DNA from: a candidate division Kazan bacterium RIFCSPHIGHO2_01_FULL_44_14
Lineage (GTDB): Bacteria > Patescibacteriota > Kazan-3B-28
Reading direction: 5' to 3'
Length of the DNA stretch: 56,217 nt
NCBI GenBank assembly: GCA_001771185.1
Contig: METB01000001.1
Span: 252,631-308,847, forward strand
In this document: positions 924 through 53,945 of the stretch, in pieces
How positions within the stretch are numbered: position 1 is the stretch's first letter
How the letters are laid out: the number at the start of each line of letters is the position of its first letter
The notes under the pieces: generated by a model
Told to the model about the DNA's origin: nothing
The model's database searches: none
Seen by the model: only the letters and a program-made list of their open reading frames with translations
Position numbers and translations under genes: made by a program

Positions 924-3281
924 TTGATGATGGAAGAAACAATCTCGGCGGTTAAAACTGATAAACAATTAGTCACCCGAGTGGGCAAAGTATTGTCTCA
1001 TGATAAAGCCAAGGGCGGATTTTCGACTTGCTTAATGTATGAACCGGACGAAGAAGCCCAAAAGGCCCATGGCTCGTTGTATTTTGTGGTGGACATCGGC
1101 AGTCCTTCTCCCCTCACGCCCGACATCGCTTACAACTTGATCGACATTGTCAAAGAAGAATATTACAGCGACCTGGAACTTTCGGCTAGCGAAAGTTTTG
1201 AAAATGCGCTTAAAGCGGCCAACGAAGAATTGGCAGCAATCGCCAAAGAGGGCGAGAAAGATTGGATCGGCAAACTCAATGTGATTGTAGCGGCAGTAGC
1301 GGATCGGGAAATTCATTTGGTTCAGCGCGGGACAGCCGAAGCTCACCTATTGCGGGGCAACAATATGATAAACTTGTCCAAGGGGATGTATACCCCTGGC
1401 GAGAGTTACCGGCCAGAGGAAACTTTACTGAACTTGATTGAAGGCGAATTGGAAGTAAACGACAAACTGATTGTCAGTACTTCGGAGTTGTTCTACTACA
1501 TCTCAATCGAGAAACTTCGTCGGATGATGGAAGGACAGACCCCAGCCCAGGCCGCCAAGCGGTTAGCTTCGGTTTTAGAGCAGGAAGATGAAATCCATCG
1601 GACTAGTGTGATGGTGGTTGAATTTTCCACCCCCGAATTGTTAGCTCAAGAAGAAGAAACCGAACCGGCCGAGAATTGGGTGGGCGAACCGCAGGAAGAA
1701 GCCCCGCGCCGGGCCAAAAAATTAAGTTTCTTTAAAGGCGGAACCACTACGACTTTGCCAGTTGAAGATAAGACCAAAACCGTGGCGGAAGCCCTGGAGA
1801 GTATTCCTCAAGAACAAATTTCCGAACCACCTCGCCCGACTGTGGTTGAGTCCAGGTTCACTCCAACCCTACCAAGAGAAGAATTGGTAATTGATGAAAC
1901 CAACGAACCCAGTTCTCATCCTAGCAAAGTTATGCGACCAAGCTTGGGACAGATTAAACCGAGTATTAACATCAGTGACTACCAAAAGAAAATCAAACTG
2001 AATTCTAACCAACTTCGCAACGCTGGAACGATTTTGTGGAAAATCCTCAAAGTGGCTGGATTGATTATCTTGACTGGAGTGGATGCGGTCTTTACCATCG
2101 TCAGCAACGCCGTCAAGAATATTAAGAAACGGCCTGGCGGAGATCGAATTCTCTTGGGTGTCGTGGTGGTGTTAATAATCGCAATCGTTGGTTCTACCCT
2201 GGCGTTTGCTAGTGGTCAGAGCAATCGGATCGGTTCAAAGAAAGCCATCACGGCTTTAGCCGACGCCCAACAAAAACGGGATGCCGCTCAAGCGGCTCTA
2301 ATTTATGAGGATACTGCTAAAGCCCGCGAACTTTTGACCGAGGCGTATTTGGCCGCCGAATCAGCCACCCATAACAAACGGACTCAAACCGAGGCCACAG
2401 TATTATTAGTCGAACTGCAGAAACAAATTGACAATGTTAGTAATGTTACCCGCTTCGTTGATGTTCAGCCAGTGGCCGACTTTGGCACACTCCAATCACA
2501 ACTAGCGTCCAGTGGAAATGCATCAGCCCAAGTTAAATTAGGAAACTTAATCGTATTGGGTGGCAATGTTTACACCATCGATCCAGACAATAACAAGGTC
2601 TATAAATACAAAGCCAGCAGTGGCGAGGTAGCCATCATCAACTCGCTGGTTTCGACTGACAAAAAATTCAAACTCGGCGCAGTTTTAAGCGAGACCGACC
2701 TGATGTTTTATACCACTCCCCCGCAGGTTTATTCACTCAATTTAGACAGCAACAGTATGGCAGTGAAAGGTCTGGATGCCGGAAGTTGGAACAATGCCGA
2801 TTCCATCATCCCTTATACCGATCGGCTGTATTTCTTGGATAGCGCCAATAATCAAATCTGGAAATATAAAGCCATCCCCGAGGGCTACACTCAAATCGCC
2901 CCATATTTCGAGAATAATGTTGGGACTGATTTAAGTGGCGCTCTGGACTTCGGGATTGAAGGCAATGTCTTCGTCTTACTGCTAAACAATGTAATCAAGA
3001 AGTTTAGCGGTGGAGGCGAAGTTCAGTTTGGTATCAACGGACTTCCGGGAGTTTACCCAGCGGTTGGCAACATTACCAGTTTATACATCAGCAACGATAC
3101 GCCGCTCTATCTACTGGATGCAACTAATCATCGGGTACTGGCCTTTGATACCGAAGGGACTTATGTCGCCCAGTACATTTACGACAATATTGATAATCCG
3201 ACCGATATGACAGTGGACCAAGCTGGAGGGTTTATTTACTTGAGTGCTGGGACAAAGGTATACCGTCTTCCTCTTAAATAA
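924..3281 (+). CDS. Membrane protein: N-terminal PP2C/PPM-like domain (probably inactive), Pro/Glu-rich linker, TM helix, coiled coil, C-terminal beta-propeller (NHL-like)
   Basis: 785-aa ORF with PP2C-like topology (LYFVVD, ENALKAAN, GxAEAHLLRG, GELEVNDKLIVST), hydrophobic ILLGVVVVLIIAIVGSTLAFA, and repeated YxxD...IxKY blades. Confidence 0.7.
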   Translation: MMMEETISAVKTDKQLVTRVGKVLSHDKAKGGFSTCLMYEPDEEAQKAHGSLYFVVDIGSPSPLTPDIAYNLIDIVKEEYYSDLELSASESFENALKAANEELAAIAKEGEKDWIGKLNVIVAAVADREIHLVQRGTAEAHLLRGNNMINLSKGMYTPGESYRPEETLLNLIEGELEVNDKLIVSTSELFYYISIEKLRRMMEGQTPAQAAKRLASVLEQEDEIHRTSVMVVEFSTPELLAQEEETEPAENWVGEPQEEAPRRAKKLSFFKGGTTTTLPVEDKTKTVAEALESIPQEQISEPPRPTVVESRFTPTLPREELVIDETNEPSSHPSKVMRPSLGQIKPSINISDYQKKIKLNSNQLRNAGTILWKILKVAGLIILTGVDAVFTIVSNAVKNIKKRPGGDRILLGVVVVLIIAIVGSTLAFASGQSNRIGSKKAITALADAQQKRDAAQAALIYEDTAKARELLTEAYLAAESATHNKRTQTEATVLLVELQKQIDNVSNVTRFVDVQPVADFGTLQSQLASSGNASAQVKLGNLIVLGGNVYTIDPDNNKVYKYKASSGEVAIINSLVSTDKKFKLGAVLSETDLMFYTTPPQVYSLNLDSNSMAVKGLDAGSWNNADSIIPYTDRLYFLDSANNQIWKYKAIPEGYTQIAPYFENNVGTDLSGALDFGIEGNVFVLLLNNVIKKFSGGGEVQFGINGLPGVYPAVGNITSLYISNDTPLYLLDATNHRVLAFDTEGTYVAQYIYDNIDNPTDMTVDQAGGFIYLSAGTKVYRLPLK

Positions 3282-3297
3282 CCGCGAAATCGTTTTT

Positions 3298-3716
3298 CTG
3301 TCATTCTGATTTTGCTATCCAGCAGAAGAAGAATCTAGACCGTGAGGTCTTTTTTGTATGTTTTAATTTGTTTCCCCGAGGGACCGAGGGGTTACCTTAT
3401 TATTTTCTTTTTCGAGCGCATAACGGCGCTCGACCCATTCCCGCTTTGTCTTGGCAAAGCGGGGTAAACCGCTTCCGCAGTCGCCCTCTTTATTTATCTA
3501 ATGAAATCCCCTTACTGCTCTCGCCAAACTTGCCGTCCTAATTTTTTTGTCATTCTGAGCGAAGTCGAAGAATCTAAAAAATTAGGACGACTTCGAACAG
3601 CTGGCTTCACGACGGCAATGACTTGGATTCAGGACACTCGGGCTCCAATGCTCGGTGGAGATAAGACAAACAACTAATCCTCTTCAGTCATCCCCGCCTA
3701 CGAGTGGGAATCCAGA
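3298..3716. repeat. Intergenic cluster of GTCAT-type REP-like palindromes
   Basis: gtcattctga...gaagaatctag (~3300); gtcattctgagcgaagtcgaagaatct (~3550) inside the inverted repeat cgtcctaattttt/aaaaattaggacg; gtcatccccgcctacgagtgggaatcc (~3688). Confidence 0.75.
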
Positions 3717-3746
3717 CAATAAAACTAAATCTGCAATAATAGATTA

Positions 3747-4187
3747 GTGAGTATCCTCAACCGTCAGGCACATTTTAATTACACCATTCTCGATACCCTC
3801 GAGGCGGGTTTGGTGTTGACTGGCAGTGAAGTAAAATCTATCCGGGCCGGACAAGTCAGTTTACAAGAGGCCTTTGCTAAAATCCGTGGGGGCGAGGCCT
3901 GGCTAATAAATTGCCACATCGCCCCCTATAAACAGTCAGCCGACCAGGACTTGGAACCGACTCGCGCCCGCAAGTTGCTATTGTCCAAAAAGGAAATTAC
4001 TTCGCTCGACCACAAGCTTTCAACTGAAGGGTTGACATTGGTTCCATTAAAATTCTATTTCAAAAAGAATCGAGTCAAAGTTGAACTCGGGCTAGGTCGG
4101 GGCAAGAAAAAATTTGATAAACGGGAAACCATCAAACGCCGAGAAACAGAACGAGAGACCAGACGGAAGATTGGAAAAAAGATGTAA
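3747..4187 (+). CDS. smpB: SsrA-binding protein SmpB
   Basis: NRQAHFNYTILDTLEAGLVLTGSEVKSIR, RARKLLL, GLGRGKKKFDKRETIK; GTG start; near ssrA. Confidence 0.98.
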   Translation: MSILNRQAHFNYTILDTLEAGLVLTGSEVKSIRAGQVSLQEAFAKIRGGEAWLINCHIAPYKQSADQDLEPTRARKLLLSKKEITSLDHKLSTEGLTLVPLKFYFKKNRVKVELGLGRGKKKFDKRETIKRRETERETRRKIGKKM

Positions 4188-4191
4188 GAAA

Positions 4192-4221
4192 AAGCCGTTC
4201 TGCTGACCAGCAGAACGGCTT
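4192..4221. terminator. Hairpin between convergent genes (likely terminator)
   Basis: Perfect 14-bp stem aagccgttctgctg/cagcagaacggctt immediately after the smpB stop. Confidence 0.65.
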
Positions 4222-4224
4222 AAT

Positions 4225-4395
4225 TTAAAAAGTACGACTCTCCTCTAATTCTGGCATCCGAAAAGGCGTTGGCAGAATCGCGACGGTGGCACTTACTTGC
4301 AAATCGGCTAGTTTATCTGGCTCGATTTCTGATTTACCGTGTCCCAATACCAGTAGGATTCCGATGATAAACACAGAGAAAATTAATCCTCTCAT
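4225..4395 (-). CDS. Small (56 aa) secreted/membrane protein, below the ORF-track cutoff
   Basis: MRGLIFSVFIIGILLVLGHGKSEIEPDKLADLQVSATVAILPTPFRMPELEESRTF*; GGAGG RBS at 4401-4405; directly follows the 4405..4656 ORF. Confidence 0.6.
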   Translation of the reverse strand: MRGLIFSVFIIGILLVLGHGKSEIEPDKLADLQVSATVAILPTPFRMPELEESRTF

Positions 4396-4404
4396 CTCTA
4401 CCTC

Positions 4405-4656
4405 CTAAACGGCTTCACAGTACACAGCCCGGCCGTCTTGCAAAACCCCAAATGCTTGGCGGTGGGGATTGTAAATGTCATGCGGTCCGTCGCCAAAACT
4501 ATCCAAAAATGGTCCTTCGACAAACTGCTTGTCCGTGCAGAGTTGGTCGAATTCCGCTTTCGGTAATTCTATCTGTTCACGGATACCCTTATCCTTATCG
4601 CGGAAAAATTGGGCACAACCAAATCTGGGCTCGTTTTTCTCGTTTTCTTCACTCAC
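4405..4656 (-). CDS. Hypothetical protein (83 aa)
   Basis: GTG start with GGAGG RBS 7 nt upstream; protein-like composition; tandem with 4225..4395. Confidence 0.6.
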   Translation of the reverse strand: MSEENEKNEPRFGCAQFFRDKDKGIREQIELPKAEFDQLCTDKQFVEGPFLDSFGDGPHDIYNPHRQAFGVLQDGRAVYCEAV

Positions 4657-4813
4657 TCACATCCCTCCAATTTCAAAGAACTTCTTAGGTACTCCTAAGA
4701 CGAATTTACTTTACATCTAAACCCAAAAATCCGCAACTGGTGCTTATATTCTCGGTTAGTGGCAACGCCATGCTGTTCAACAGAATCTACGACTGGGGAA
4801 ATCCTTCCTGCGT

Positions 4814-5059
4814 TCAATCTCGAAACAGATGTTTATTGGCAAAGGCCTTGCCAGAATGTGATTTTAGGTATTGCTCAAATTCTTTAGCAGTATTCTGTTT
4901 CTCAAAAGCTGAATAAAAAATCAAATCCCAGGGTTTGTATTTGGCAGTATATTTCGACTGTCCTGTATTGTGAGCCTTTACTCTTTGCTTTAACTCATTG
5001 CTAAATCCAACATAAATCCTACCATCAACATGGCTTCTGATAGTATAAACGTAATACAT
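4814..5059 (-). CDS. Small GIY-YIG nuclease (SLX1/UPF0213-like), copy A
   Basis: MYYVYTIRSHVDGRIYVGFSNELKQRVKAHNTG...KPW...E; the likely start is ATG 5059, since the longer track ORF reads through a repeat leader. Confidence 0.9.
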   Translation of the reverse strand: MYYVYTIRSHVDGRIYVGFSNELKQRVKAHNTGQSKYTAKYKPWDLIFYSAFEKQNTAKEFEQYLKSHSGKAFANKHLFRD

Positions 5060-5243
5060 ATTTTGATTATATGCCCATGCTTCGTTCTGTGAACTACGCA
5101 GGGCAGGTTCGCTCCCTGGGTGCGACTCTACTGTTTCAATCAAAACGAAAACAGCCCGAAAGGGCTTTTCCGTTTTGGTGGTGCATTCTGGATGAAGTGG
5201 GAACTTGGTTGAGGGAAAATGGTCGGCAATTCGACCAGCTGTC

Positions 5244-6476
5244 TTACGATTTTTGTAGTAGAACCGCTGTTGTTTGAAGATCAGTTTTGTATTGTAAAGT
5301 CCTGGGGGTGGAATGTAGCCCTAACTGCCCAGCAAGACCAGACACTTCTTCCGGAGTAATTCCTTTTTGGAAAGTTTGCTTACCGGGGTGAGACCAATAG
5401 CCGTCGTTATGGGTCTGCCAATGTTTCTTCGCTACTTCCGACTCTATCGCTTTGAGAGAACGGGTTACAACCAGGAGTTTACCGGCTGGGTTGAGGTACT
5501 CGGCTGCTTGTTTAAGCACCTTCAACCTTTCTGCCATAGTGGGCAGAACATTCAATACGAATATGAGAGTTACTAAATCGTATTTGCTGTCTGGGAGCTT
5601 ACCCCAACCGAAAGGTATGTGAGGGTCAAACCCATCGGCAACTAAACCAGATTTGCGATAATGCTCTACATCTCTCCCGTAACCGCAACCATAGTCCAAA
5701 ATTGATTTGATGCCTTGTGTAGTCACTAATGTATCAGTTACCCAATGAGCAAATGGAGAAGCTATTTTGCGAGGGATTGCAGTTTTATAAGAAGCTACAC
5801 TCTTTTCTACAAAATTTAATACCTGGGCGGAATGATCAGTAAACCTATGCTCACCCTCCCTAACGGTATGGTCGTATTGAAAAGTTGTTTGCAGAATAAA
5901 TACGGGATCTACCAAGGTAAGGTCACATCGGAAACAAATCTCCTGATTGAGCCTATTTCGTTTTATAGTAAACCCCTTCCCGTGCCCAGCATCGCTATAA
6001 GCTCGGCTACTTATTAGTTCTTGGAACGAACCTCGATCCAACTCGGAATTAAAGTTACTAATGTTTGTACCCACAAGACCATCCTCAGGCAAGGGCGCCA
6101 GATTAAAGTCACCCATCAAAAAAGCTGGCTCGTTGTTCAGTCGCTTTAACTCTTGAAGCTGTTCTGCCCGTTTGGCGCAAGTGTAAGCATCAAGATAAAC
6201 ATTAAAAAGTGGTACCCCTTGAAATACAATTTTCTGTACATAGGGCAAATTCAGCTCAACCCTCCCATTGCTGCCAGAGTTCAACCATATTGCCAGATTG
6301 GTGTTGGAGACCAGTAGCGACATTCCTGGTATATGCAAAACTTCGTTGCTCGGTTGCTTGGATGGCTCTTGCACCAGGAGAACATCAGGATTGATACCGC
6401 CTAACCATTCCAGAAACTCGCTCTTGGCAACAGGATTGCCCATCCTCTTATTTAAATTGATTGAAACTACTCTCAT
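5244..6476 (-). CDS. Fusion of an EEP (DNase I/ExoIII-like) nuclease/phosphatase and a class I SAM methyltransferase
   Basis: EEP motifs SINLN, LVQEP, GDFN, RCD, TDH; MTase motifs ILDYGCGYGRD, GFDP, VLNVL...ER, TFQK. Confidence 0.85.
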   Translation of the reverse strand: MRVVSINLNKRMGNPVAKSEFLEWLGGINPDVLLVQEPSKQPSNEVLHIPGMSLLVSNTNLAIWLNSGSNGRVELNLPYVQKIVFQGVPLFNVYLDAYTCAKRAEQLQELKRLNNEPAFLMGDFNLAPLPEDGLVGTNISNFNSELDRGSFQELISSRAYSDAGHGKGFTIKRNRLNQEICFRCDLTLVDPVFILQTTFQYDHTVREGEHRFTDHSAQVLNFVEKSVASYKTAIPRKIASPFAHWVTDTLVTTQGIKSILDYGCGYGRDVEHYRKSGLVADGFDPHIPFGWGKLPDSKYDLVTLIFVLNVLPTMAERLKVLKQAAEYLNPAGKLLVVTRSLKAIESEVAKKHWQTHNDGYWSHPGKQTFQKGITPEEVSGLAGQLGLHSTPRTLQYKTDLQTTAVLLQKS

Positions 6477-6542
6477 ATATCAAGGATATCAGTTCCAATA
6501 ACACTTTGCTGTCATAAAATAAACTAATCCCACAAAGGAGAT

Positions 6543-6785
6543 TTAGAATAGGCGCTTGTTGGCAAAGGCTTTACCGGAACCAGCTTTCAAGTAGGTTTCG
6601 AATTTTTCAGCTTGAGTCTTGGTCTTGAAGGCGATATAGCAAACCACATCCCAAGGTTTGAATTTACTGGTGTGGGGAGATTGTCCGGCATTGTGAGATT
6701 TTAGTCGTGCTTTCAAATCGGAAGAACTGCCAATGTATGTTTGGGATTTATCTTTATGACTTTTGAGCAAATAAACATAATACAC
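6543..6785 (-). CDS. Small GIY-YIG nuclease, copy B
   Basis: MYYVYLLKSHKDKSQTYIGSSSDLKARLKSHNAG...KPW...SGKAFANKRLF; GTG start; clear paralogue of copy A. Confidence 0.9.
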   Translation of the reverse strand: MYYVYLLKSHKDKSQTYIGSSSDLKARLKSHNAGQSPHTSKFKPWDVVCYIAFKTKTQAEKFETYLKAGSGKAFANKRLF

Positions 6786-6923
6786 ACTTTTAGTATGCTC
6801 TACTACGTTCTGCTTTACAGCAGAACTTCGAAGGGCAACCTTCGCTATTTATCTCTACATAAAATCTGTGCCATCAGCACACCTTGAGCGGCGCAGCCAA
6901 CCGTAGCTCGATAGAGCGAAGGT

Positions 6924-7297
6924 TGGTGGAGCTGGGGGGATTCGCACCCCCGTCCAGCGAACGATATCTACTAGCTTCTACATACATAGTCGATTTGTTG
7001 GGTATCCATTGTTATCCTCAAACCGACAAAGCAATAACAACTTAAGCCACTATTATCTTAGTTCTACCCAATGGCCGAGTAGAAAGCGGCTCGAATAATA
7101 TAACACCGCTATTCCACCCATCCGAGCAGAGGTGGGAGCGATGGCACTAGCAATTAGGCCAGTGCTGGCGCGAAAGCAAAGCTTTCGCTAAATGCTTTGT
7201 TGGCATTTGTAGTTTGGTGTGATTTTGCGTTACGACACCACTAACGGTATGCGACCAAGTAGTTATCAAAGTCCACTGTCGAAAGCTATACAGCCCC
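6924..7297 (-). ncRNA. ssrA: tmRNA (one-piece, ~374 nt), predicted tag (A)ANKAFSESFAFAPALA
   Basis: 5' GGGGCTGTATAGCTTTCGAC; 3' GGACGGGGGTGCGAATCCCCCCAGCTCCACCA; acceptor GGGGCTG/CAGCTCC with G3.U70; tag frame 7204..7154. Confidence 0.95.
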
Positions 7298-7419
7298 ATA
7301 ATCTGCACGCGGACAGTGTAGTCCCCCCTTCCCTGCTGGTCAAGAGATGTGATTTGACACACAACCATATCAGGATTAGGATGGCGGCGGTTGTTAATTT
7401 GTTCCTTTTGGGAGGAATC

Positions 7420-7743
7420 ATGGCAATATACCAAGAGCCACTTTCGCTCACAACAATGATTTCACGGTTCGGCCTACTGATAACCGTCGAAATCGCTCAC
7501 TGCCGTGGCTGGTTGAAAAATGTATTACCAGAGTTGGCTCTCCTGGAACTCACACGGTTGTCTGGGCAGACAACCGGAGAGCTTCGATTGACCATCATAG
7601 CCGAGATAGAGCAACGCCAGAAAACTCGCGAGTTTTCGTCGCAATATCCTTCTCCGCCGATTCTTCCAGAGTCGACTGTTGTTAATCTAGAGCGAACTGC
7701 GCGAGTCCAAGAACTGGCTTACACGATCGAGCTCTATGTCTAG
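7420..7743 (+). CDS. Hypothetical protein (107 aa)
   Basis: GGAGG RBS then ATG 7420 (the longer track ORF overlaps tmRNA antisense); followed by a terminator. Confidence 0.55.
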   Translation: MAIYQEPLSLTTMISRFGLLITVEIAHCRGWLKNVLPELALLELTRLSGQTTGELRLTIIAEIEQRQKTREFSSQYPSPPILPESTVVNLERTARVQELAYTIELYV

Positions 7744-7752
7744 GTCTAGTGC

Positions 7753-7782
7753 GACGGGCTGATTATCAGCCCGTCTTTTTTT
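7753..7782 (+). terminator. Intrinsic terminator
   Basis: gacgggctgat-t-atcagcccgtc followed by a T run. Confidence 0.75.
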
Positions 7783-10129
7783 GTCTACGCTTACGGTCAA
7801 TTAGTATCGCTCCTCCACCCAATACCAATTGGGTGATTTGCAGTAAAATAAACCACCACAGCCAGTTGATGCGAGACGGATGGCCCAAGAATCCTGGCAC
7901 TGGTCCACCGAGGGGCGTGTACATTTCCACCACTTTTTCATCTAGCGGGGTCTGATTTTCGACCACACTCGGGCTTTTACCAAAAGCCATTGCCACTCGA
8001 CCATCATTCAACTGCACGACTTGTTGGAACCAATTGTAGCCAGTCAGATAAGAATTTGATGCGGGATAAACTTTATGATTCACGAAATCCAACACCTCGC
8101 CAAGTTCCGCAGAGGCCCCAGAGATACCAGATATTACAGGGCTGATGTAAACAGTATCGTTTGGCAGTAAAAATGTCTTAGACCGAACATGATAATCCGT
8201 CAACACCCCCTCAAAAAATTCTGACTGACCGGTCTTAATATCAAAGATTTCGTATGATGGTGACATATTTGGAGCCACATCCAAACCGTCATCCAGCGAA
8301 TTTTTCGATTCCCCTTTTACAAAACGGGCTTGTTCATCTCCGCCAACAATCAGAACTTTATTGTCTGAAAGTAAAATTGCTGATTGATAAGCCCGACCGA
8401 CTTTTAGTTGGCCGATTTCTTTGCTAGTCATCATCTTTGGGTCAAATATTTCGACACTCCGCGTCAGTCCTAAAATATGCCAACCAGCCGCATCCTCCGC
8501 ACTAGCATTATAGTTGCGCAGGTACCGCCCTTCTCCAAATTCTTCGTTAGCTGGTAATTTTTCAATAAAACTATGTCCGCCAATAATGAGTAGTTTCCCG
8601 TTAGGTAATTCCGTCACCGACTGACCGGCCAAGCGCGGAACCGCCAGCTGAACTAGGTTGGTATAGCCGGAGGTCTTTTTCTTGTCTTGCTGAACCAACT
8701 TCCATTGGCTGGTCTTGGTGTTCCACTGACTAATTGCACTCCGTATCATCACATTAGCAATCACGCTTTGAGCGGTATTAGGAACAAGTTCGGGACGAGG
8801 AGTAATTGCAACTCCGCCAGTCGAAAAACTCCAAGCTGTAGCAATCCCACCCGCTCCCTTGGCTAGAGGCAATTGGGTTGGATTATAAGTTTGAGGGATT
8901 GTGACACCGCCCTGTCCGCTCCGAATATATTTGGTAATATCGGGCCAATCATCCCCAAGTTTCAATGTCCCAGTTTTGGTCTTAGCTGTGTATCGCCCGT
9001 CCTCAATGGTTTGGGCAAAGACCTGTTTGTCATATAACCAACGACTCAACCAATAGTCCCTCACCACACTAACAGCGCCAGTATTGGGATTAAATATTTG
9101 ACCGTAAACTTTGTCGTCATTTCGACTCCACTTAAATAAAACTTTTCCATTATTCAATCGCACCGCTACTTCAACACCAGTTAAATGGCTTTGGGTTGCG
9201 GGATATTTCAATTGACCCCGATTTTGCCAGACCCCTTCATCCTGCCAGTTGGTGGCTAAACTTAGTGGCAGATTTTTGACATTGTCCTTGGCTCGTTGTT
9301 GATCTACCGAGAGCAAAGTAGGTGGTGTATAAATCGCCAGCGACGGAGCAGACGAGGCAACCGCCGACCCAAAAGCATCAGCTGTTAGCCCATTGGAACC
9401 AAAATAATAGAACGCTATTTTCCCATCCCCCAACAAGATGGCGTCACTGGCTGACAGATTTTTAGGTCTGGCTAGAGTTTCAGTCGGAGTATCTAAAATC
9501 GCCAAATCATACAAACTGTAATAAAGCGTCTTGAGATTCTTGCCAATTAAAAGCATCATCCCATCTCCCGCATAAACAAAGTCATAGCCAAATGGTGCTT
9601 GGAGATTAAAACTGCGCTTAACTGCCTTCGAATAGAGAGCAACTTGGTTGCTGACCCCCGCTTCGGTCATTAATAAAATCAGACCACTGGGAAGCGAAAT
9701 AGTTTTTTGGTAATACCTGGTTCGGCCGACAGAATCAATATAAGTTGGAGATCCGTTTTTTCCCCTGGCTAGTTCTTGGCCAACCTCAACATTCCCATCC
9801 AGATGAACTTCTTTTTGTTTGGCTTCGGCATATAAAGCGTATAAATCCGTGAACTGGTCATGTCGACCTTGGAGATAGGTCGGTGACCACTCTCCCGCAT
9901 TGGCCGTACCAGAAATAACTGGAGTAAATGGAATTACTGTTTCCTGACTTGGTCTAAACCACCACCATAGACCCAAAGCAATCAACGCAATTAGCAAAAC
10001 CAGCCACCACCAGCGATGGTGAGGTTTAGGCGCCGGAAGTAGTAACAGAGGACGAGATAGAGACGGCCGGGACTGAAGTCCAATCGACTTTGGAACAGAG
10101 TTTTTTTGAGTTGTTTGATTTCGCCCCAT
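7766..10129 (-). CDS. Membrane-anchored protein with C-terminal Kelch/galactose-oxidase-like repeats
   Basis: N- and C-terminal TM helices; RLAGQSVTELPNGKLLIIGG, GRAYQSAILLSDNKVLIVGG. Confidence 0.75.
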   Translation of the reverse strand: MGRNQTTQKNSVPKSIGLQSRPSLSRPLLLLPAPKPHHRWWWLVLLIALIALGLWWWFRPSQETVIPFTPVISGTANAGEWSPTYLQGRHDQFTDLYALYAEAKQKEVHLDGNVEVGQELARGKNGSPTYIDSVGRTRYYQKTISLPSGLILLMTEAGVSNQVALYSKAVKRSFNLQAPFGYDFVYAGDGMMLLIGKNLKTLYYSLYDLAILDTPTETLARPKNLSASDAILLGDGKIAFYYFGSNGLTADAFGSAVASSAPSLAIYTPPTLLSVDQQRAKDNVKNLPLSLATNWQDEGVWQNRGQLKYPATQSHLTGVEVAVRLNNGKVLFKWSRNDDKVYGQIFNPNTGAVSVVRDYWLSRWLYDKQVFAQTIEDGRYTAKTKTGTLKLGDDWPDITKYIRSGQGGVTIPQTYNPTQLPLAKGAGGIATAWSFSTGGVAITPRPELVPNTAQSVIANVMIRSAISQWNTKTSQWKLVQQDKKKTSGYTNLVQLAVPRLAGQSVTELPNGKLLIIGGHSFIEKLPANEEFGEGRYLRNYNASAEDAAGWHILGLTRSVEIFDPKMMTSKEIGQLKVGRAYQSAILLSDNKVLIVGGDEQARFVKGESKNSLDDGLDVAPNMSPSYEIFDIKTGQSEFFEGVLTDYHVRSKTFLLPNDTVYISPVISGISGASAELGEVLDFVNHKVYPASNSYLTGYNWFQQVVQLNDGRVAMAFGKSPSVVENQTPLDEKVVEMYTPLGGPVPGFLGHPSRINWLWWFILLQITQLVLGGGAILIDRKRRQKKTG

Positions 10130-21861: not shown

Positions 21862-21983
21862 ATTCATACACACGGAGCGCTCCGCAAGGAGCGCGTAGGG
21901 ATTAACCCAGTCCGATTTTGGTTGTGGGTATGTATAAAAATAGCCCCGGCAAGCCGGGACTATTTTTTAAGTGTCGTAATTAA

Positions 21984-42900: not shown

Positions 42901-44584
42901 CGAGCTTGAGCTTGGTGATTTTAACACCTTCAGTTGAAGCCGAAGAGAACTTAAACTTCGCCACTTCAATTTGCTCGTCACCAATGATGTATGCCTGAGC
43001 CGTAAGAGTAGTCGCATCTTCGGCGACAGTAATGGTACCCTGAATAATCGTAAAAGTACCAGCGGCAGACAAAGTCGAGAAAGCAGTACCAGTGGTAGTT
43101 GAGGTGATGGTCACGACTCCGTTTGAATTTTGACCATAGGCCACCACACTAGTGGTTTCTTCAACTTGCCAGATGATTGTGCGCTGTGAAGTGATACCAG
43201 ATGCGACATCGGCAGCGACATAGACAACCTTGTTCTGACCAGCAGCCACGCTAAATAGTGGGCTGCCAGTGAAGGTCACTTTACCACCGCTTAGGGAAGC
43301 AACTGTCGAACCGATTTGAACACCGTTAACCTTTAACTTCATGTTCTTAACATCAGAATCAACTGACGTACCAACTTCGGTCAAAGTAAGAGAGTTAACA
43401 TCGAATCCTTCAGTGGCACTAGTTGCAAACTTGAAGGAACCCAAGTCCTGATCGGTGGTCCCAGAGACAACGTTGGCAGAAGCTGGGCTGGTAGGCGCAG
43501 TTACGGCCAAGTATCCCACAGATACTCCACCAACAGTAACATTATTTCCTGTTGCCGGGAAAGTTCCAGCCACTGTTCCGCCACCCGAGAGGACAACGTC
43601 AGAAGCTGAATCGATTCCCATGGTAACAATCTTTCCAACATCGGCAGTACTTGGGATAGTAATTTTTACAGTTAAGATCTTGGTAGTTCCCGCAGGAATT
43701 AGCCAAGATAAACCTGTAAATGTAGCTTTATGAGTGGTGGTGTTCAAACCTTGGGTTGAACCAAGTTTCGTATCACCGTCATAAATTTTAATGTCTGATG
43801 CATCGTCGTCAGCCGATAAACCGTCGCGACGAATAGCAATACTAGAAACTAATGCATTGTCACTAGCACTGGCTGCAAAGTTAATCTTTGTGACAACAAC
43901 ATCAGTAGCCAAAACGGCTACATTTAAAGCAGCTGGTGTTGTACCAGCAATACCGACATTCAGATTGCCGCCACCAGTCACGGTGCCGCCAATCAAGAAT
44001 CGCCAGAAGATGTCGCCAGAAGCGATGGCTTTGCCACCGGCAGTTACCTGCTGGGCCCAGCCGTCGAATTCACGGACAACTTCGGTGTAAAGATCGTAGG
44101 TGCCATTGGTGGCAGTGCTCTTAATCTTTACTGTCCAAGTCAAGGTCAAATCTTGACCTGGGTTGACTGCTGCACCGTCATAGTAGGTAAACCGATTACC
44201 ATTGATGGTGAAGCTTGATGCATCAAGCCAAGCCGGAACATTGTCCCGGGGATGCGAGGTACCGACACCCACCGCGTGAGCGTTGGGATAGGAAGGACCC
44301 TCGCTAAGCAGAGCACTCTTACCATACATGGTAAGGGCTTGTGAACTGGTAGACCGGTTACGAATGGTCAAGGACATACTCACGGTGTCGCCAGGATTGG
44401 TGGCAATTTCATGAGCTTTGCCATCGGCCGAAATCGTACCGCTCTGCGCAATCCACTGGTACTTGAAAGTACCGAGATTCTCAAAAGCCAGCGCTTGAGG
44501 CGCGGCGAAAGCCACAGCCATTGATGTTGCCATCAACCAGGCGAGGGCCTTTGAGGTGTTGCGTAAAACTGTATTATTCATCAA
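39959..44584 (-). CDS. S-layer-like / major surface protein (1541 aa) with an N-terminal NBR1-type Ig-like domain and tandem beta-rich repeats
   Basis: Signal peptide; Thr/Ser/Ala/Gly-rich; repeated module (TP.A.NV..G..D.....F.F.A...E...V.SL.....G....D..NVKLY.G.TQ.G). Confidence 0.8.
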   Translation of the reverse strand: MMNNTVLRNTSKALAWLMATSMAVAFAAPQALAFENLGTFKYQWIAQSGTISADGKAHEIATNPGDTVSMSLTIRNRSTSSQALTMYGKSALLSEGPSYPNAHAVGVGTSHPRDNVPAWLDASSFTINGNRFTYYDGAAVNPGQDLTLTWTVKIKSTATNGTYDLYTEVVREFDGWAQQVTAGGKAIASGDIFWRFLIGGTVTGGGNLNVGIAGTTPAALNVAVLATDVVVTKINFAASASDNALVSSIAIRRDGLSADDDASDIKIYDGDTKLGSTQGLNTTTHKATFTGLSWLIPAGTTKILTVKITIPSTADVGKIVTMGIDSASDVVLSGGGTVAGTFPATGNNVTVGGVSVGYLAVTAPTSPASANVVSGTTDQDLGSFKFATSATEGFDVNSLTLTEVGTSVDSDVKNMKLKVNGVQIGSTVASLSGGKVTFTGSPLFSVAAGQNKVVYVAADVASGITSQRTIIWQVEETTSVVAYGQNSNGVVTITSTTTGTAFSTLSAAGTFTIIQGTITVAEDATTLTAQAYIIGDEQIEVAKFKFSSASTEGVKITKLKLEENGDAVSTDYQNVRIYVGDSATPISTAGSVSGTTTTFEEGNGLFTIPASGNTIITIKLDISSSAAAIDTLQFGVGNANDDYSYVTGYGSTSGEKIPQDTSHITLTTCADTDAAIHTIAANGTLVISVGPNTPAAANVAKGVTNYEFTQFRAQATSEAMRVTAVASRFFVGAGTGTASATGDVNNVKLLVWNGTAWTQLGSTVSNPTTGVASFSFDYTVPKNTTSTFKVVGDIPTGTAAASLHANIIDYGIADDITSTGVSSAADITETGSAIGLLHTVVAPIITVNASTVPGDSTLIVNGDNELLGKFFLSANDVEDIKVSTLKIYTDIDGTMDGASAADLLTNTVYLRFNDGGTWRATNPDNWATGSPDFIIFAGSDFKEPNEWIIPAGGSLVVEIRGDVIAAGTAYVGMTTTAANTVGAGLSSGTSATIYDYQASPNQAYNQIWKSGAMTLSAGGTITITAATNKPAVQQVTSTWNVSAPVTPTFFKIKLEGTSEDIIVDAIRAKLFDGNQGAAATDDNFAGTVYVWEGGTIVNNVLTGGVQVGSGSLIPVTSDDAAADIVFTTPITIPKDGVKYLTLTAEMNSDTNGADSADTPYIGLDYNVQTGLWDSNYADDYNVRATGVSSNAKLYSEGTIAAVLKGNATFVVKAKLGMEMNSGSPSGLATRHPGHPIFIVNMTNTSGGTDARFRAASANAVSAITSWATTGDAYLAAVETNTTYDIDGTSLKFTASGTSAVDDGFYYDDALANDLSAYERVSFWLYSSAAVAAGDLEFVISSETADMISTGSPEFDEDIPAIAIGSWQRMDFALSGLTSDSRYYGVVVKANPDDSAGIYIDNIQFYDDMLNIDLSSDGGLFNTTGASTNPAVTFKDSSGTTVATGYVSGTGTAGLSTSTAKITMIPNTEWAIPAGGDVLTVLVDTTVLMNAASEDLTMTVDLGSSNSDGDITAGDVMWNDNEYASSIDWVDSPTPLSRGLNF

Positions 44585-48509: not shown

Positions 48510-48842
48510 AGGGGCCAGTTAATAGTTAAAAGTGAATGGTGAATAGTTATAGAAAGGATTGGAGATGGGGGTCAGTTAAAGGTGAATGGTCCTCCTCCGT
48601 TCTGCTGTCCGCCAGCTGGCGGAAGCAGAACTACGGAAGGATCTGCGATGAATAGTTGGGTAAAAAGAGTTCGTCATGCTGAATTTAGTTCAGCATCCCT
48701 GCCTACCGGCAGGCAGGTAGATCCTGAAACAAGTTCAGGATGACGAGCGGGGAGAGATCCTTCGGCTCCGCTCAGGATGACAAGGGATGGGCTTGGGATG
48801 ACAGATATAGGTGGGCAAAAACGATAGACACATCTGTCATTT
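48510..48842. repeat. Composite repeat region between sigma B and DUF5667 B
   Basis: gttaata/gtgaatg heptads; CCTCCT-hairpin-CTACGGAAGG element (48591-48652); cctgcctaccggcaggcagg (48698-48717) nested in a GTCAT REP. Confidence 0.85.
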
Positions 48843-49399: not shown

Positions 49400-49637
49400 T
49401 GATGAGTAACGAGTATTGAGTTGCGAGTAGCGAGTGTATTGAGTCGAAGGACCATCTGTCATCCTGGTAATTCTGCCGTACGGCAGAAGCATCCAGAATC
49501 TTATATACGATTCTGGGCACCTGCCCGAAGATGCTACATCATTGCAGGCGGGAGCCAGAATGACGACGGATATGGTGGGTTAAGCCAGAACACGACTCCG
49601 TTTTAATTGGTTAGATTGGTGAGATTGAATAGATTGG
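49400..49637. repeat. Composite repeat region between mnmA and sigma B
   Basis: Heptad arm at 49400-49443; GTCAT REP at ~49460-49502, a near-identical inverted copy of ~15357-15399; gattggtt repeats. Confidence 0.8.
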
Positions 49638-51011: not shown

Positions 51012-51260
51012 AACGAATTAAAAATTAAAAATTGATAAATTAAAAATGGAGAATGGGACTGTAAAATAGAGAAGTTAATAGTTAAAAGTGATAAGTCCTC
51101 CTCCGTCCCGGTTCGCCGGGACTACGGAAGGATCCTCGATGAAAAGTTATAGTTGTCATTCCGAGTGACACCGAGTGTAGCCGAGGGGAATCGAGGAATC
51201 TAGCTCGTCAGCTAACGGACGGCTATGCCTAGATCCTTCGACTCCGCTCAGGATGACAGG
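51012..51260. repeat. Composite repeat region upstream of mnmA
   Basis: aaattaa heptads; 83-bp segment 51121-51203 matches 53447-53529 (3 mismatches). Confidence 0.8.
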
Positions 51261-52120: not shown

Positions 52121-52172
52121 CGATTTTTGACTAAATTTTATGGTGTAATAATAAATGGGGATAAGTCCCGGG

Positions 52173-52681
52173 ACCTACAACATAGTTGTAGGTATGAAGT
52201 TAGTTGTGAGAGCGAGTAATCGCTCCGCGCCTACAACGGTCTTTCAACCGAAGCAAAGAAAAAGATCACGATGGCTAAAATTGTTGCGAGGGTTAACATA
52301 GTGTTGTAGGGTACCTACAACACTATTGTAGGCGACCTACAACATAGTTGCAACCCCCAACATTTTTGGTTGCAACATAGTTGTGCTGTTTATTCGCATA
52401 TGTATAGTTATATAATATAGTAAAGCATTTTTTAGAGGCACAACCCTACAACACCCTTGTAGGCATTTTCCCATAGACCTACAACGCCATGTAAAGTGAC
52501 CTACAACACTCTGCAAAGTCGTCTTCATTGACTTACCACCTTGTTTTGTGGTGTAATATTTTTACACCTATGGAGGCATATTGGGGATAACTTATATTTC
52601 AAGCCACCTACAACACTGTTGTAGGTATGAAGTTAGTTGTGAGAGCATAAAAATCGTTCGCGCCTACAACACTGTTGTAGG
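52173..52681. repeat. Array of CCTACAAC-N3-GTTGTAGG palindromes and half-sites
   Basis: 9 CCTACAAC and 4 GTTGTAGG exact copies plus 2 one-mismatch half-sites in ~510 bp. Confidence 0.9.
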
Positions 52682-52779
52682 TTGTCGCAACGTTGTAACA
52701 AGTGATTACAAATATTTTAATACTATTTGTCAATGTTTGGTAAAAACTTGTCAAGGGCACTTATCCCCAATTTTTCAAT

Positions 52780-53389: not shown

Positions 53390-53945
53390 AAGTTAATAGT
53401 TAAAAGTCCTCCTTCGTTCTGCTGTCCGCCAGCTGGCGGAAGCAGAACTACGGAAGGATCTGCGATGAAAAGTTATAGTTGTCATTCCGAGTGACCCCGA
53501 GTGTAGCCGAGGGGAATCGAGGAATCTAGTCCCGGCTAGCCGGGACGGCTCCGCCTAGATCCTTCGACTCGCTTCGCTCACTCAGGATGACAAAAAGAAG
53601 GGCTGGATCAGGATGACAAAAAGGAGGACTTACTTAAGATGACAGAATAAAAGAATACCAATGGAGATTAAAGTCACAACCAACAATTTATCTGCCACCC
53701 AAACGCTGGGGGAGACCTCCTTTGTTCTGCTGTCCGCCAGCTGGCGGAAGCAGAATTACGAAAGGATCTGCGATGAAAAGTTGGGGGTTGGGAATTGGGG
53801 ATGGTCAGTGAACAGTTAAAGGTTAAAAGCCACTTAAAAGAGTTCCGTCATGCTGAATTTACGATGTCCCGAGTTTACCGAGGGGATTCAGCATCTATCT
53901 TACTTATCGAGCCATGGATTCTGAAACGAGTTCAGGATGACCAGA
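53390..53945. repeat. Large REP cluster
   Basis: Two CCTCCT-hairpin-CTACGG elements (53408-53469, 53716-53777) and several GTCAT/ATGAC palindromes. Confidence 0.85.

Follow-up and report, generated by a model that had tools for sequence, protein, structure and literature searches.

Small GIY-YIG nuclease genes with folded leaders at the 3' ends of tRNA and tmRNA genes: a probable selfish cassette in a Kazan bacterium and its relatives

RESULTS

Two nuclease genes behind the tmRNA gene

We analyzed a stretch of 56,217 nucleotides (nt), hereafter the window (bases 252631-308847), from the single-contig genome of candidate division Kazan bacterium RIFCSPHIGHO2_01_FULL_44_14 (699,981 bp, 45.6% G+C, rated 99.7% complete), in which two small GIY-YIG nuclease genes, A and B, follow the gene for transfer-messenger RNA (tmRNA). 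The order on the minus strand is tmRNA, GIY-YIG B, a gene for a fusion protein of 410 amino acids (aa), and GIY-YIG A (Table 1). Both nuclease genes have a leader with hairpins, and cassette B, made of a 138-nt leader and a 240-nt coding sequence, begins at the base following the CCA of the tmRNA gene. A previous reading of this DNA, made from the sequence only, had proposed a repeatable unit of leader and nuclease gene that targets tRNA-like 3' ends and may mobilize a family of repetitive extragenic palindromic (REP) elements. The leader sequences that it quoted were found at both places on the minus strand, and its approximate distances agree with ours: the hairpin next to the gene ends 11 nt before the GTG start of B and 13 nt before the ATG start of A (about 10 nt had been given), while the start codon lies 138 nt from the CCA in B and 116 nt from it in A, counted in the latter case from a second CCACCA at 5176-5181 (115 to 140 nt had been given).

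The two proteins are paralogs, as had been proposed; both belong to PF01541 and they are 56% identical. The GIY-YIG domain spans residues 1-71, and Pfam found no DNA-binding domain beside it in either protein (80 and 81 aa). Residues Y5, Y17, G19, R27, H31, and E63 are invariant in an alignment of eight paralogs, so the catalytic residues are kept. The closest solved structures in a profile search of the PDB were the UPF0213 protein BH0048 (8e-14) and SLX1. In total, the genome codes for 13 small GIY-YIG proteins plus UvrC; two of the other paralogs are designated C and D here, whereas loci in related genomes are labeled L0xx and two genomes of the same genus G001 and G002. The closest paralog of B is C (84% identity), located 22 kb from B directly behind tRNA-Ala(cgc). 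Their coding sequences differ by 0.089 changes per nonsynonymous site and 0.85 per synonymous site (pN and pS), which indicates purifying selection with saturated synonymous sites.

Table 1. Coordinates of the features of the locus and of the dispersed hairpins, as positions in the window
Feature	Position	Strand	Evidence or remark
tmRNA gene, tag ANKAFSESFAFAPALA	6924-7297	minus	ARAGORN; Rfam RF00023, 143.5 bits
Terminal CCA of the tmRNA gene, putative docking point	6924-6926	minus	
H1 hairpin, CCA-ACC-TTCG-CTCTATCGAG-CTAC-GGT-TGG	6897-6926	minus	Covariation, 14 leaders; alone behind the G001 tmRNA
H2 small hairpin, GGC-TGC-GCC (TGGC-loop-GCCA module)	6890-6898	minus	85% of cells paired; 2 pairs changed on both sides
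Terminator-like hairpin, TGTGCTGATGGCACA then GATTTTAT	6859-6881	minus	Terminator scan
S3, GCGAAGGTTG, perfect reverse complement of CAACCTTCGC	6836-6845	minus	X/X' pairs GC, CG, AU covary
R hairpin of B, GCCC-TT-CGAAG-(nested palindrome)-CGTAG-TA-GAGC, G.A and A.G mismatches	6797-6836	minus	
Nested copy of the 18-bp palindromic mini-repeat TTCTGCYGTNCRGCAGAA	6807-6826	minus	About 30 copies in the genome
-10-like box CATACT, 6 nt ahead of the GTG start of B	6792-6797	minus	Sequence
GIY-YIG B, 80 aa, GTG start	6543-6785	minus	Pfam PF01541, E 4.8e-17
Right flank of B, ATCTCCTTTGTGGGATTAG..ATGACAGCAAAG..TGATAT, terminator-plus-promoter module	6486-6542	minus	
410-aa fusion, endonuclease/exonuclease/phosphatase (EEP) plus S-adenosylmethionine (SAM) methyltransferase domains	5244-6476	minus	Pfam PF03372, PF13489; NCBIfam TIGR04096
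Relic tmRNA 3' end GCACCACCA plus terminator hairpin AAAACGGAAAAGCCCTTTCGGGCTGTTTTCGTTTT	5142-5184	minus	Alignment; terminator scan
S3-like segment of A (GCGAACCTG), pairing partner missing	5104-5112	minus	
R hairpin of A, GCCC-TG-CGTAG-TTC-ACA-GAA-CGAAG-CAT-GGGC	5073-5104	minus	Minimum-energy fold
Promoter-like site TTCACA-16-TATAAT, 11/12 matches	5066-5093	minus	Best match in 4600-7500
GIY-YIG A, 81 aa, ATG start	4814-5059	minus	Pfam PF01541, E 8.5e-18
Dispersed REP-like hairpin CTCCG-hairpin-CTACG, GTCC..GGATC flanks, leader-type mismatched core	48595-48643	plus	
Dispersed REP-like hairpin, GTCC..GGATC flanks, inner stem TCCCGG/CCGGGA	51101-51134	plus	
Dispersed REP-like hairpin CTTCG..CTACG	53412-53460	plus	
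Dispersed REP-like hairpin, degenerate copy CTTTG..TTACG	53720-53768	plus	

Architecture of the leaders

The sequence-only reading had taken both genes to carry the same structured leader. This holds for the 3' part of about 45 nt, formed by a segment (S3) and a hairpin (R), but not for hairpins H1 and H2, which have been lost in A; leader B holds in addition the CCA-pairing H1, H2, and a terminator-like hairpin. Both R hairpins share an invariant core (C-G, G.A, N-N, A.G, G-C) inside a GCCC/GGGC stem; the gene-strand sequence is CGTAG..CGAAG for A and CGAAG..CGTAG for B. Nested in the B hairpin, as its inner stem (GTTCTGCTGTAAAGCAGAAC), is a distinct mini-repeat that the leader of paralog C lacks. 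At the other end of leader B, the outer stem of H1 pairs the CCA of the tmRNA with TGG and has conserved T.C and C.T mismatches. The complement of S3, formed by the last two bases of the CCA and the first 8 nt of the leader, pairs with it as a long-range helix (P1) that abuts hairpin R and is present in the minimum-energy fold of the single-stranded DNA.

Signals for transcription are found along the same region. The terminator-like hairpin of leader B, whose position is taken by a stem of different sequence in L052, is likely a replacement terminator for the tmRNA transcript. The 6-nt spacing between the -10 box and the start codon is identical in A, C, D, L017, L049, L052, L054, L059, L062, and L074 and characterizes copies from the candidate phyla radiation (CPR); in the promoter-like site of A the -35 box is inside the R loop while the -10 box ends 6 nt before the ATG. 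Judging from these motifs, the element seems to replace the terminator of the RNA gene and to carry its own, probably leaderless, promoter. An Rfam 15 scan of positions 3000-9000 (E up to 1) returned only the tmRNA and no covariance-model match for the leader, with a subthreshold match to permuted tmRNA overlapping the tmRNA end. A small open reading frame (MAQIL..) in the conserved central part of the leader was discarded, as it is not conserved among B, C, and L059.

An alignment of 14 leaders from several phyla was used to test four helices: H1 (CCA-X-CTTCG..CTWCG-X'-TGG), H2 (TGGC..GCCA), P1 (CA-X-CTTCGC with GCGAAG-X'-TG), and the mismatched hairpin R. All four are supported by covariation. 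Paired cells amounted to 90% for H1 plus R and 88% for P1, H2, and R together (23 to 46% with slid partners), with 9 and 11 pair changes on both sides, respectively, and a covariation score that none of 500 shuffles matched. The pairing CCA:TGG is found in 13 of the 14 leaders and CA:TG in all 14. The fixed mismatches, T.C and C.T in H1 and G.A and A.G in R, are complementary in type, so H1 is the R motif on the other strand; since H1 and P1 use the same 5' arm, they are alternative folds. In the minimum-energy fold of the copy behind tRNA-Ile, P1 ends where R starts, so that the fold is branched and the tRNA gene makes up one of its arms. As single strands, the leaders fold better than shuffled sequences (z of -2.8 to -4.3). 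The wobble asymmetry that could tell RNA from DNA was uninformative, with 11 G.T mismatches and 14 A.C mismatches, that is, equally frequent.

Insertion sites and a relic tmRNA end

The B and C loci are homologous from TCCACCA/ACCTTCGC, which stands behind the tmRNA gene in one case and behind tRNA-Ala(cgc) in the other, up to the stop codon. Within this stretch, leader bases 1 to 95 are 96% identical although the synonymous sites of the genes are saturated; hence, the leader module is preserved or exchanged separately from the gene. The module found after the stop codon of B (ATCTCCTTTGTGGGATT..ATGACAGCAAAG) gives the other border. This right flank (TAA/ATCTCCTTTGTGGGA..) directly follows the tmRNA CCA in L065, comes after a duplicated CCA (CCAGCTCCACCA) in L057, and is located behind other cassettes in L059 and in L074, the latter behind tRNA-Ala. 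From this placement in relatives, cassette B is an insertion between the CCA and the right-flank module, and the comparison indicates that it was a precise one, separating the CCA from the terminator and promoter DNA that flanks it. The idea that the ATCTCCTTTGTGGGA module is the native tmRNA terminator is only partly tenable, given its presence after the tRNA-Ala cassette of L074.

Filled, hairpin-only, and empty sites coexist among close relatives. A GIY-YIG gene is directly downstream of the tmRNA in 6 of 22 relatives' loci. The tmRNA site of G002 is empty, with an ordinary terminator after the CCA, and that of G001 has only H1, H2, and a T-run, with no gene. The tRNA-Ala(cgc) gene of G002 is 100% identical to that of the source genome, yet only H1 and H2 are found behind it.

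The second CCACCA, which the earlier reading had pointed out, is likewise meaningful. The segment 5113-5184, formed by GCACCACCA, the terminator hairpin, and TCGCACCCAGGGA, can be aligned to L061, L055, and L058 across their tmRNA ends and the DNA that follows, by which we identify the CCACCA at 5176-5181 as a relic tmRNA end. Cassette A retains just S3 and R behind it.

Homologs and leaders without a gene

A survey combining pattern searches and tblastn, with one genome per species, yielded 37 loci in CPR groups, Alphaproteobacteria, Kiritimatiellae, Acidobacteriota, Opitutales, WOR-3, Bdellovibrionales, and Rickettsiales. Four of them could not be assessed for an upstream tRNA or tmRNA gene; among the other 33, 23 are linked to one (22 complete genes and 1 tRNA cut by the contig end), on the same strand and 34 to 289 nt away. 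The tRNAs are mostly Ala, but also Ser, Asp, Glu, His, Thr, Gln, Asn, and Pro. Several loci without a linked tRNA gene bear a tag resembling a tRNA end (CTCTCCGCCA, CCTCCACCA) immediately ahead of the leader. Most linked loci have a common leader plan: H1, the small TGGC..GCCA hairpin, a stretch able to pair with the CCA junction, and the mismatched hairpin. Sixteen loci show the inverted motif (Y, the H1 orientation) within approximately -100 to -190 and R within approximately -15 to -65; copies of the motif downstream of the gene are rare. Many homologs thus have both the leader and the tRNA or tmRNA linkage, whose lack would have spoken against the sequence-only reading. Its repeatable cassette is likewise borne out by the identical junction behind tmRNA and tRNA-Ala and by the different states of the sites, and the targeting of tRNA-like 3' ends appears well supported by these comparisons.

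Leaders without a gene complete the picture in the source genome. Full leaders of the type found with A, B, and C (class I) are located behind tRNA-Ile, tRNA-Gly(tcc), and tRNA-Leu(caa), and partial ones behind tRNA-Ser(cga) and tRNA-Arg(tct). A second class of leader (CGAACC../TAAACC..) precedes paralog D behind tRNA-Ala(ggc), where D is flanked by duplicated tRNA ends, and is also found without a gene behind tRNA-Phe. Here and in relatives alike, class I leaders accompany A/B/C-like proteins, and class II leaders accompany D-like ones. Altogether, modules are located at the 3' end of at least 8 of the 46 tRNA and tmRNA genes.

Other palindromes were seen near tRNA genes. An R-like hairpin (CGGAG-CGCTCC-GCAA-GGAGCG-CGTAG, 21873-21898, plus strand) stands 12 nt after tRNA-Pro(ggg), and tRNA-Leu(cag) and tRNA-Leu(tag) (genome positions 182093 and 552278) are each followed by a palindrome of about 36 nt, AACGCTTTGCG(C)GTAGCAATGCGGGCTGG, and a duplicated GCCCACCA. 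In R hairpins with a CTC..GAG apex (e.g., genome positions 538102-538121 and 43030-43049), the core GTAGCTC-loop-GAGCG matches the D-arm of the tRNA consensus exactly (positions 7-13 and 22-26). The 5' part of a tRNA gene may have given rise to this hairpin or may be imitated by it.

Dispersed hairpins

The sequence-only reading had equated the leader core with that of dispersed elements in the window. The mismatched core is indeed common to both, but the dispersed copies have GTCC..GGATC flanks of their own. These flanks are closer than the leaders to the published motif of the Ssn nucleases (family cd10448, with SsnA in Neisseria meningitidis; Chenal et al. 2025, PMC11893778), enzymes with a single GIY-YIG domain that cut single-stranded DNA beside a hairpin repeat flanking their own gene. 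We rejected the leaders as Ssn recognition motifs; the published degenerate SRM pattern (HGTCWY..hairpin..RNCYNB) has no match within 300 nt of any of the 13 small GIY-YIG genes and 7 matches genome-wide.

The pattern CGNAG-hairpin-CGNAG with a stem of at least 3 bp occurs 35 times in the genome (17 and 18 copies on the two strands), compared with 5 to 12 in Markov controls, and TCCGTAG..CGRAGGA occurs 100 times in 31 related genomes, compared with 10 for the reversed control. GTAG-tagged REPs have been described previously (Di Nocera et al. 2013, PMC3733652), and the leaders, too, carry GTAG-tagged palindromes as an inverted doublet, namely, the pair H1 and R. A search for Y1 transposases (PF01797), the family of the REP-associated tyrosine transposases (RAYT), found none in the 700-kb genome, while the control search was positive in 6 of 14 reference genomes.

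As for the suggested relation between REP copy number and gene presence, the number of hairpins across the 31 relatives, uncorrected for phylogeny, follows that of tRNA-linked GIY-YIG genes (Spearman 0.75). However, Ssn-like paralogs correlate nearly as well (rho 0.70; partial correlations of 0.53 for tRNA-linked and 0.39 for Ssn-like genes, likewise uncorrected), and the correlation fails as proof of specificity. The lack of a RAYT and the correlation with tRNA-linked genes speak for a mobilization of the dispersed REP family by the nuclease, and the Ssn-like flanks of the dispersed copies speak against it. Such mobilization is only weakly and nonspecifically supported, and the dispersed hairpins with the leader core may be further, nonautonomous targets.

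The repeats of the window have other peculiarities. The mini-repeat TTCTGCYGTNCRGCAGAA (6807-6826, 48600-48630, 49471-49488, 53417-53447, and 53725-53755) is always at the tip of another hairpin, be it REP-like, of the GTCAT type, or a terminator, so that hairpins are nested in hairpins. Repeats in the style of NTS/SRM (GTCAT..hairpin..GGATGAC/GAATC) at 48680-48790, 51150-51260, and 53470-53600 form intergenic arrays with the CTTCG..CTACG elements, and at genome positions 556671, 559069, and 464445 an R-type hairpin is found within the loop of a GTCAT-type repeat. Between 49720 and 50600, tandem runs of heptamers (GACGAGT/GAGTGAC) face their reverse complements (ACTCGCG) as long imperfect palindromes that interrupt or flank coding sequence. 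Finally, a 550-bp noncoding stretch (52160-52720) has at least eight CCTACAACA(C/T)..TGTAGG half-palindromes that look like an iteron or operator array beside a small regulator-like gene.

Neighboring genes

The 410-aa gene between the cassettes was considered as cargo and rejected; this EEP-methyltransferase fusion is missing from all related tmRNA loci and is treated only as a neighbor. Its methyltransferase half resembles dnd-associated methyltransferases (TIGR04096, E 6e-18), and a promoter-like ATGACA-17-TGATAT precedes the gene. The gene for the protein partner of tmRNA, smpB (3747-4187, plus strand), is less than 3 kb from the tmRNA gene, with both cassettes between them.

DISCUSSION

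A cassette that docks on CCA ends

Considering the exact junction, its presence or absence among close relatives, the recurrence of the same design in many phyla, and the gene-less leaders behind other tRNAs, all of them seen in sequence comparisons, we regard the two genes as probable copies of a selfish mini-cassette whose docking sites are the 3' ends of tRNA and tmRNA genes. Such a cassette would combine a folded leader of 100 to 230 nt with the gene that follows it, which codes for a bare GIY-YIG nuclease (80 aa) of the Slx1/UPF0213-like branch. The proposed order from the base after the encoded CCA is H1, H2, sometimes a hairpin that replaces the terminator of the host gene, S3, and R, and the CPR leaders would end with the -10 box 6 nt before the start codon.

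The insertion mechanism that we infer is by analogy. Slx1 cuts branched DNA. Like Slx1 and the Ssn enzymes, the nuclease would recognize the mismatched hairpins as folded single-stranded or extruded DNA and nick at the P1/R branch beside the tRNA end, after which CCA ends that are still free would receive a copy of the cassette, or of a leader without a gene, through repair or strand transfer. It is a more speculative and, in our view, doubtful idea that the leader is a DNA-guided targeting device, in which S3 would pair with the CCA junction (10 to 18 bp, covarying) to form a branched structure that the 80-aa nuclease cuts exactly at the tRNA end. If this were true, the unit of 0.38 kb would be mobile autonomously, by means of the smallest enzyme known for such an element, and the gene-less leaders and dispersed CGNAG hairpins would be nonautonomous riders, similar to REPINs, in a genome without RAYT.

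Several points weigh against a self-propagating cassette. The protein is 80 aa long and lacks a separate DNA-binding domain, and host recombination could move the cassettes without the nuclease. Some loci (D, L057) show target-site duplications and B does not, so the copies may not all share a single mechanism. The cosegregation of leader class and nuclease clade is no proof of recognition, since the two are physically linked. H1, H2, and the T-run resemble an ordinary terminator and R overlaps a promoter-like site, so that part of the leader conservation may serve expression. Lastly, the nearly equal correlation of the hairpins with Ssn-like paralogs applies here as well, and the counts of G.T and A.C mismatches neither support nor exclude a function as single strand.

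Alternative explanations

Ssn nucleases and their hairpin repeats (PMC11893778) are a closer published analog than RAYT, and a host function of that kind has to be considered. The protein would then be a site-specific nuclease for single-stranded DNA whose cognate hairpins mark the genome, e.g., for the control of incoming or replicating single-stranded DNA as with SsnA in Neisseria, and the cassettes would pile up at tRNA ends because these are permissive and prone to recombination, with the nuclease not driving its own spread. Both systems have a single-domain GIY-YIG protein (about 80 to 95 aa) with a hairpin beside its own gene and related hairpins dispersed in the genome, and recognition of structure plus sequence is likely in both. 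The relation between hairpin and gene numbers across relatives and the strong purifying selection on the protein also fit such a function. However, A, B, and C are outside the Ssn-like cluster of the genome (415994, 204310), with only 33 to 42% identity to its members and without their C-terminal extension (KxWxRxxK..NPxWxDL). Their hairpin is CGNAG-stem-CGNAG with purine-purine mismatches instead of the GTCAT..ATC motif, the published motif is missing from their flanks, and the cassette hairpins form an inverted pair on the upstream side of the gene only. The Ssn paper (PMC11893778) never mentions tRNA and describes neither the fixed position at a tRNA or tmRNA CCA end nor a leader segment complementary to the junction, features that recur in many phyla and that passive accumulation does not predict. 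We consider this explanation unlikely.

A system acting at the RNA level seems still less probable. The leader would then serve as 3' trailer in the precursor of the tRNA or tmRNA and as 5' region in the mRNA of the nuclease, with hairpins for termination, processing, or translational control, and the small protein would act on that RNA (e.g., cutting between CCA and the next base) or merely be expressed from the strong promoter of the RNA gene. In its favor, H1 starts exactly at the mature 3' end and pairs with the CCA, H1 and H2 with the T-run stand alone and terminator-like behind the G001 tmRNA, leader B contains a terminator-like hairpin, and the 3x3 internal loop, with its G.A and A.G pairs, could plausibly be an RNA motif. 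On the other hand, G.U-compatible mismatches are not in excess over A.C on the sense strand, the motif is found in both orientations inside one leader and dispersed on both strands, the -10 box of the CPR copies would put the hairpins upstream of the mRNA, and Rfam has no match to the leader. Moreover, the characterized single-domain relatives (Ssn) do not act on RNA, and the pattern of gain and loss and the duplicated tRNA ends would be left unexplained. A local accident, that is, a segmental duplication next to the tmRNA gene with a chance likeness to dispersed hairpins, would agree with two genes 1.7 kb apart on the same strand but is barely credible, as A and B are so divergent, the closest paralog of B is behind tRNA-Ala with the same junction, the architecture is repeated at dozens of loci in other phyla, and the motif is in clear excess over expectation.

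Relation to other mobile elements

Turning back to the docking cassette, the Seg family of free-standing GIY-YIG homing endonuclease genes of T-even phages, with SegB in the tRNA gene cluster of T4 (PMC2330249), is similar in being intron-less GIY-YIG genes, in their presence or absence at one site in close relatives, and in their association with tRNA genes; the flanking module shared with the tRNA-Ala cassette of L074 might also reflect coconversion of flanking DNA. However, Seg proteins have about 200 aa or more with a DNA-binding domain, compared with 80 aa here, their genes have neither a conserved folded leader nor gene-less derivatives, and they are phage genes, whereas the cassettes are chromosomal and found across phyla.

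With REP/REPIN and RAYT systems, the elements share short palindromes tagged with (C)GTAG, inverted pairs, a single-copy enzyme gene beside the hairpins, and a hairpin copy number that follows the number of enzyme genes. They differ in that the genome has no HUH/Y1 transposase, the adjoining enzyme being a GIY-YIG nuclease, and in that the pair of hairpins is confined to the upstream side of the gene and anchored to the tRNA end. The likeness to the single-strand transposons of the IS200/IS605 family (IS608 TnpA) is of layout only: subterminal imperfect hairpins, with a short segment at the hairpin foot that pairs with the cleavage or target site, much as S3 is placed beside R. The enzyme is HUH in IS608 and GIY-YIG here, and the complementary segment has 4 nt there and 10 to 18 nt here. 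Our literature searches found no description of GIY-YIG cassettes at tRNA ends; this widespread element has apparently gone undescribed so far.

Implications

Small stand-alone GIY-YIG genes are among the commonest orphan annotations ("nuclease family protein") in bacteria. Locating one clade of them behind tRNA and tmRNA genes, at the CCA end with which their covarying leader pairs, provides these orphans with a role that can be tested. It also indicates that even CPR genomes of 0.7 Mb carry active-looking selfish DNA. The annotation of tRNA 3' flanks, terminators, and "REP" elements should consider these leaders. If the nuclease reads the folded hairpin together with the base-paired junction, it would be, after the Ssn enzymes, a minimal DNA nuclease directed by both structure and sequence.

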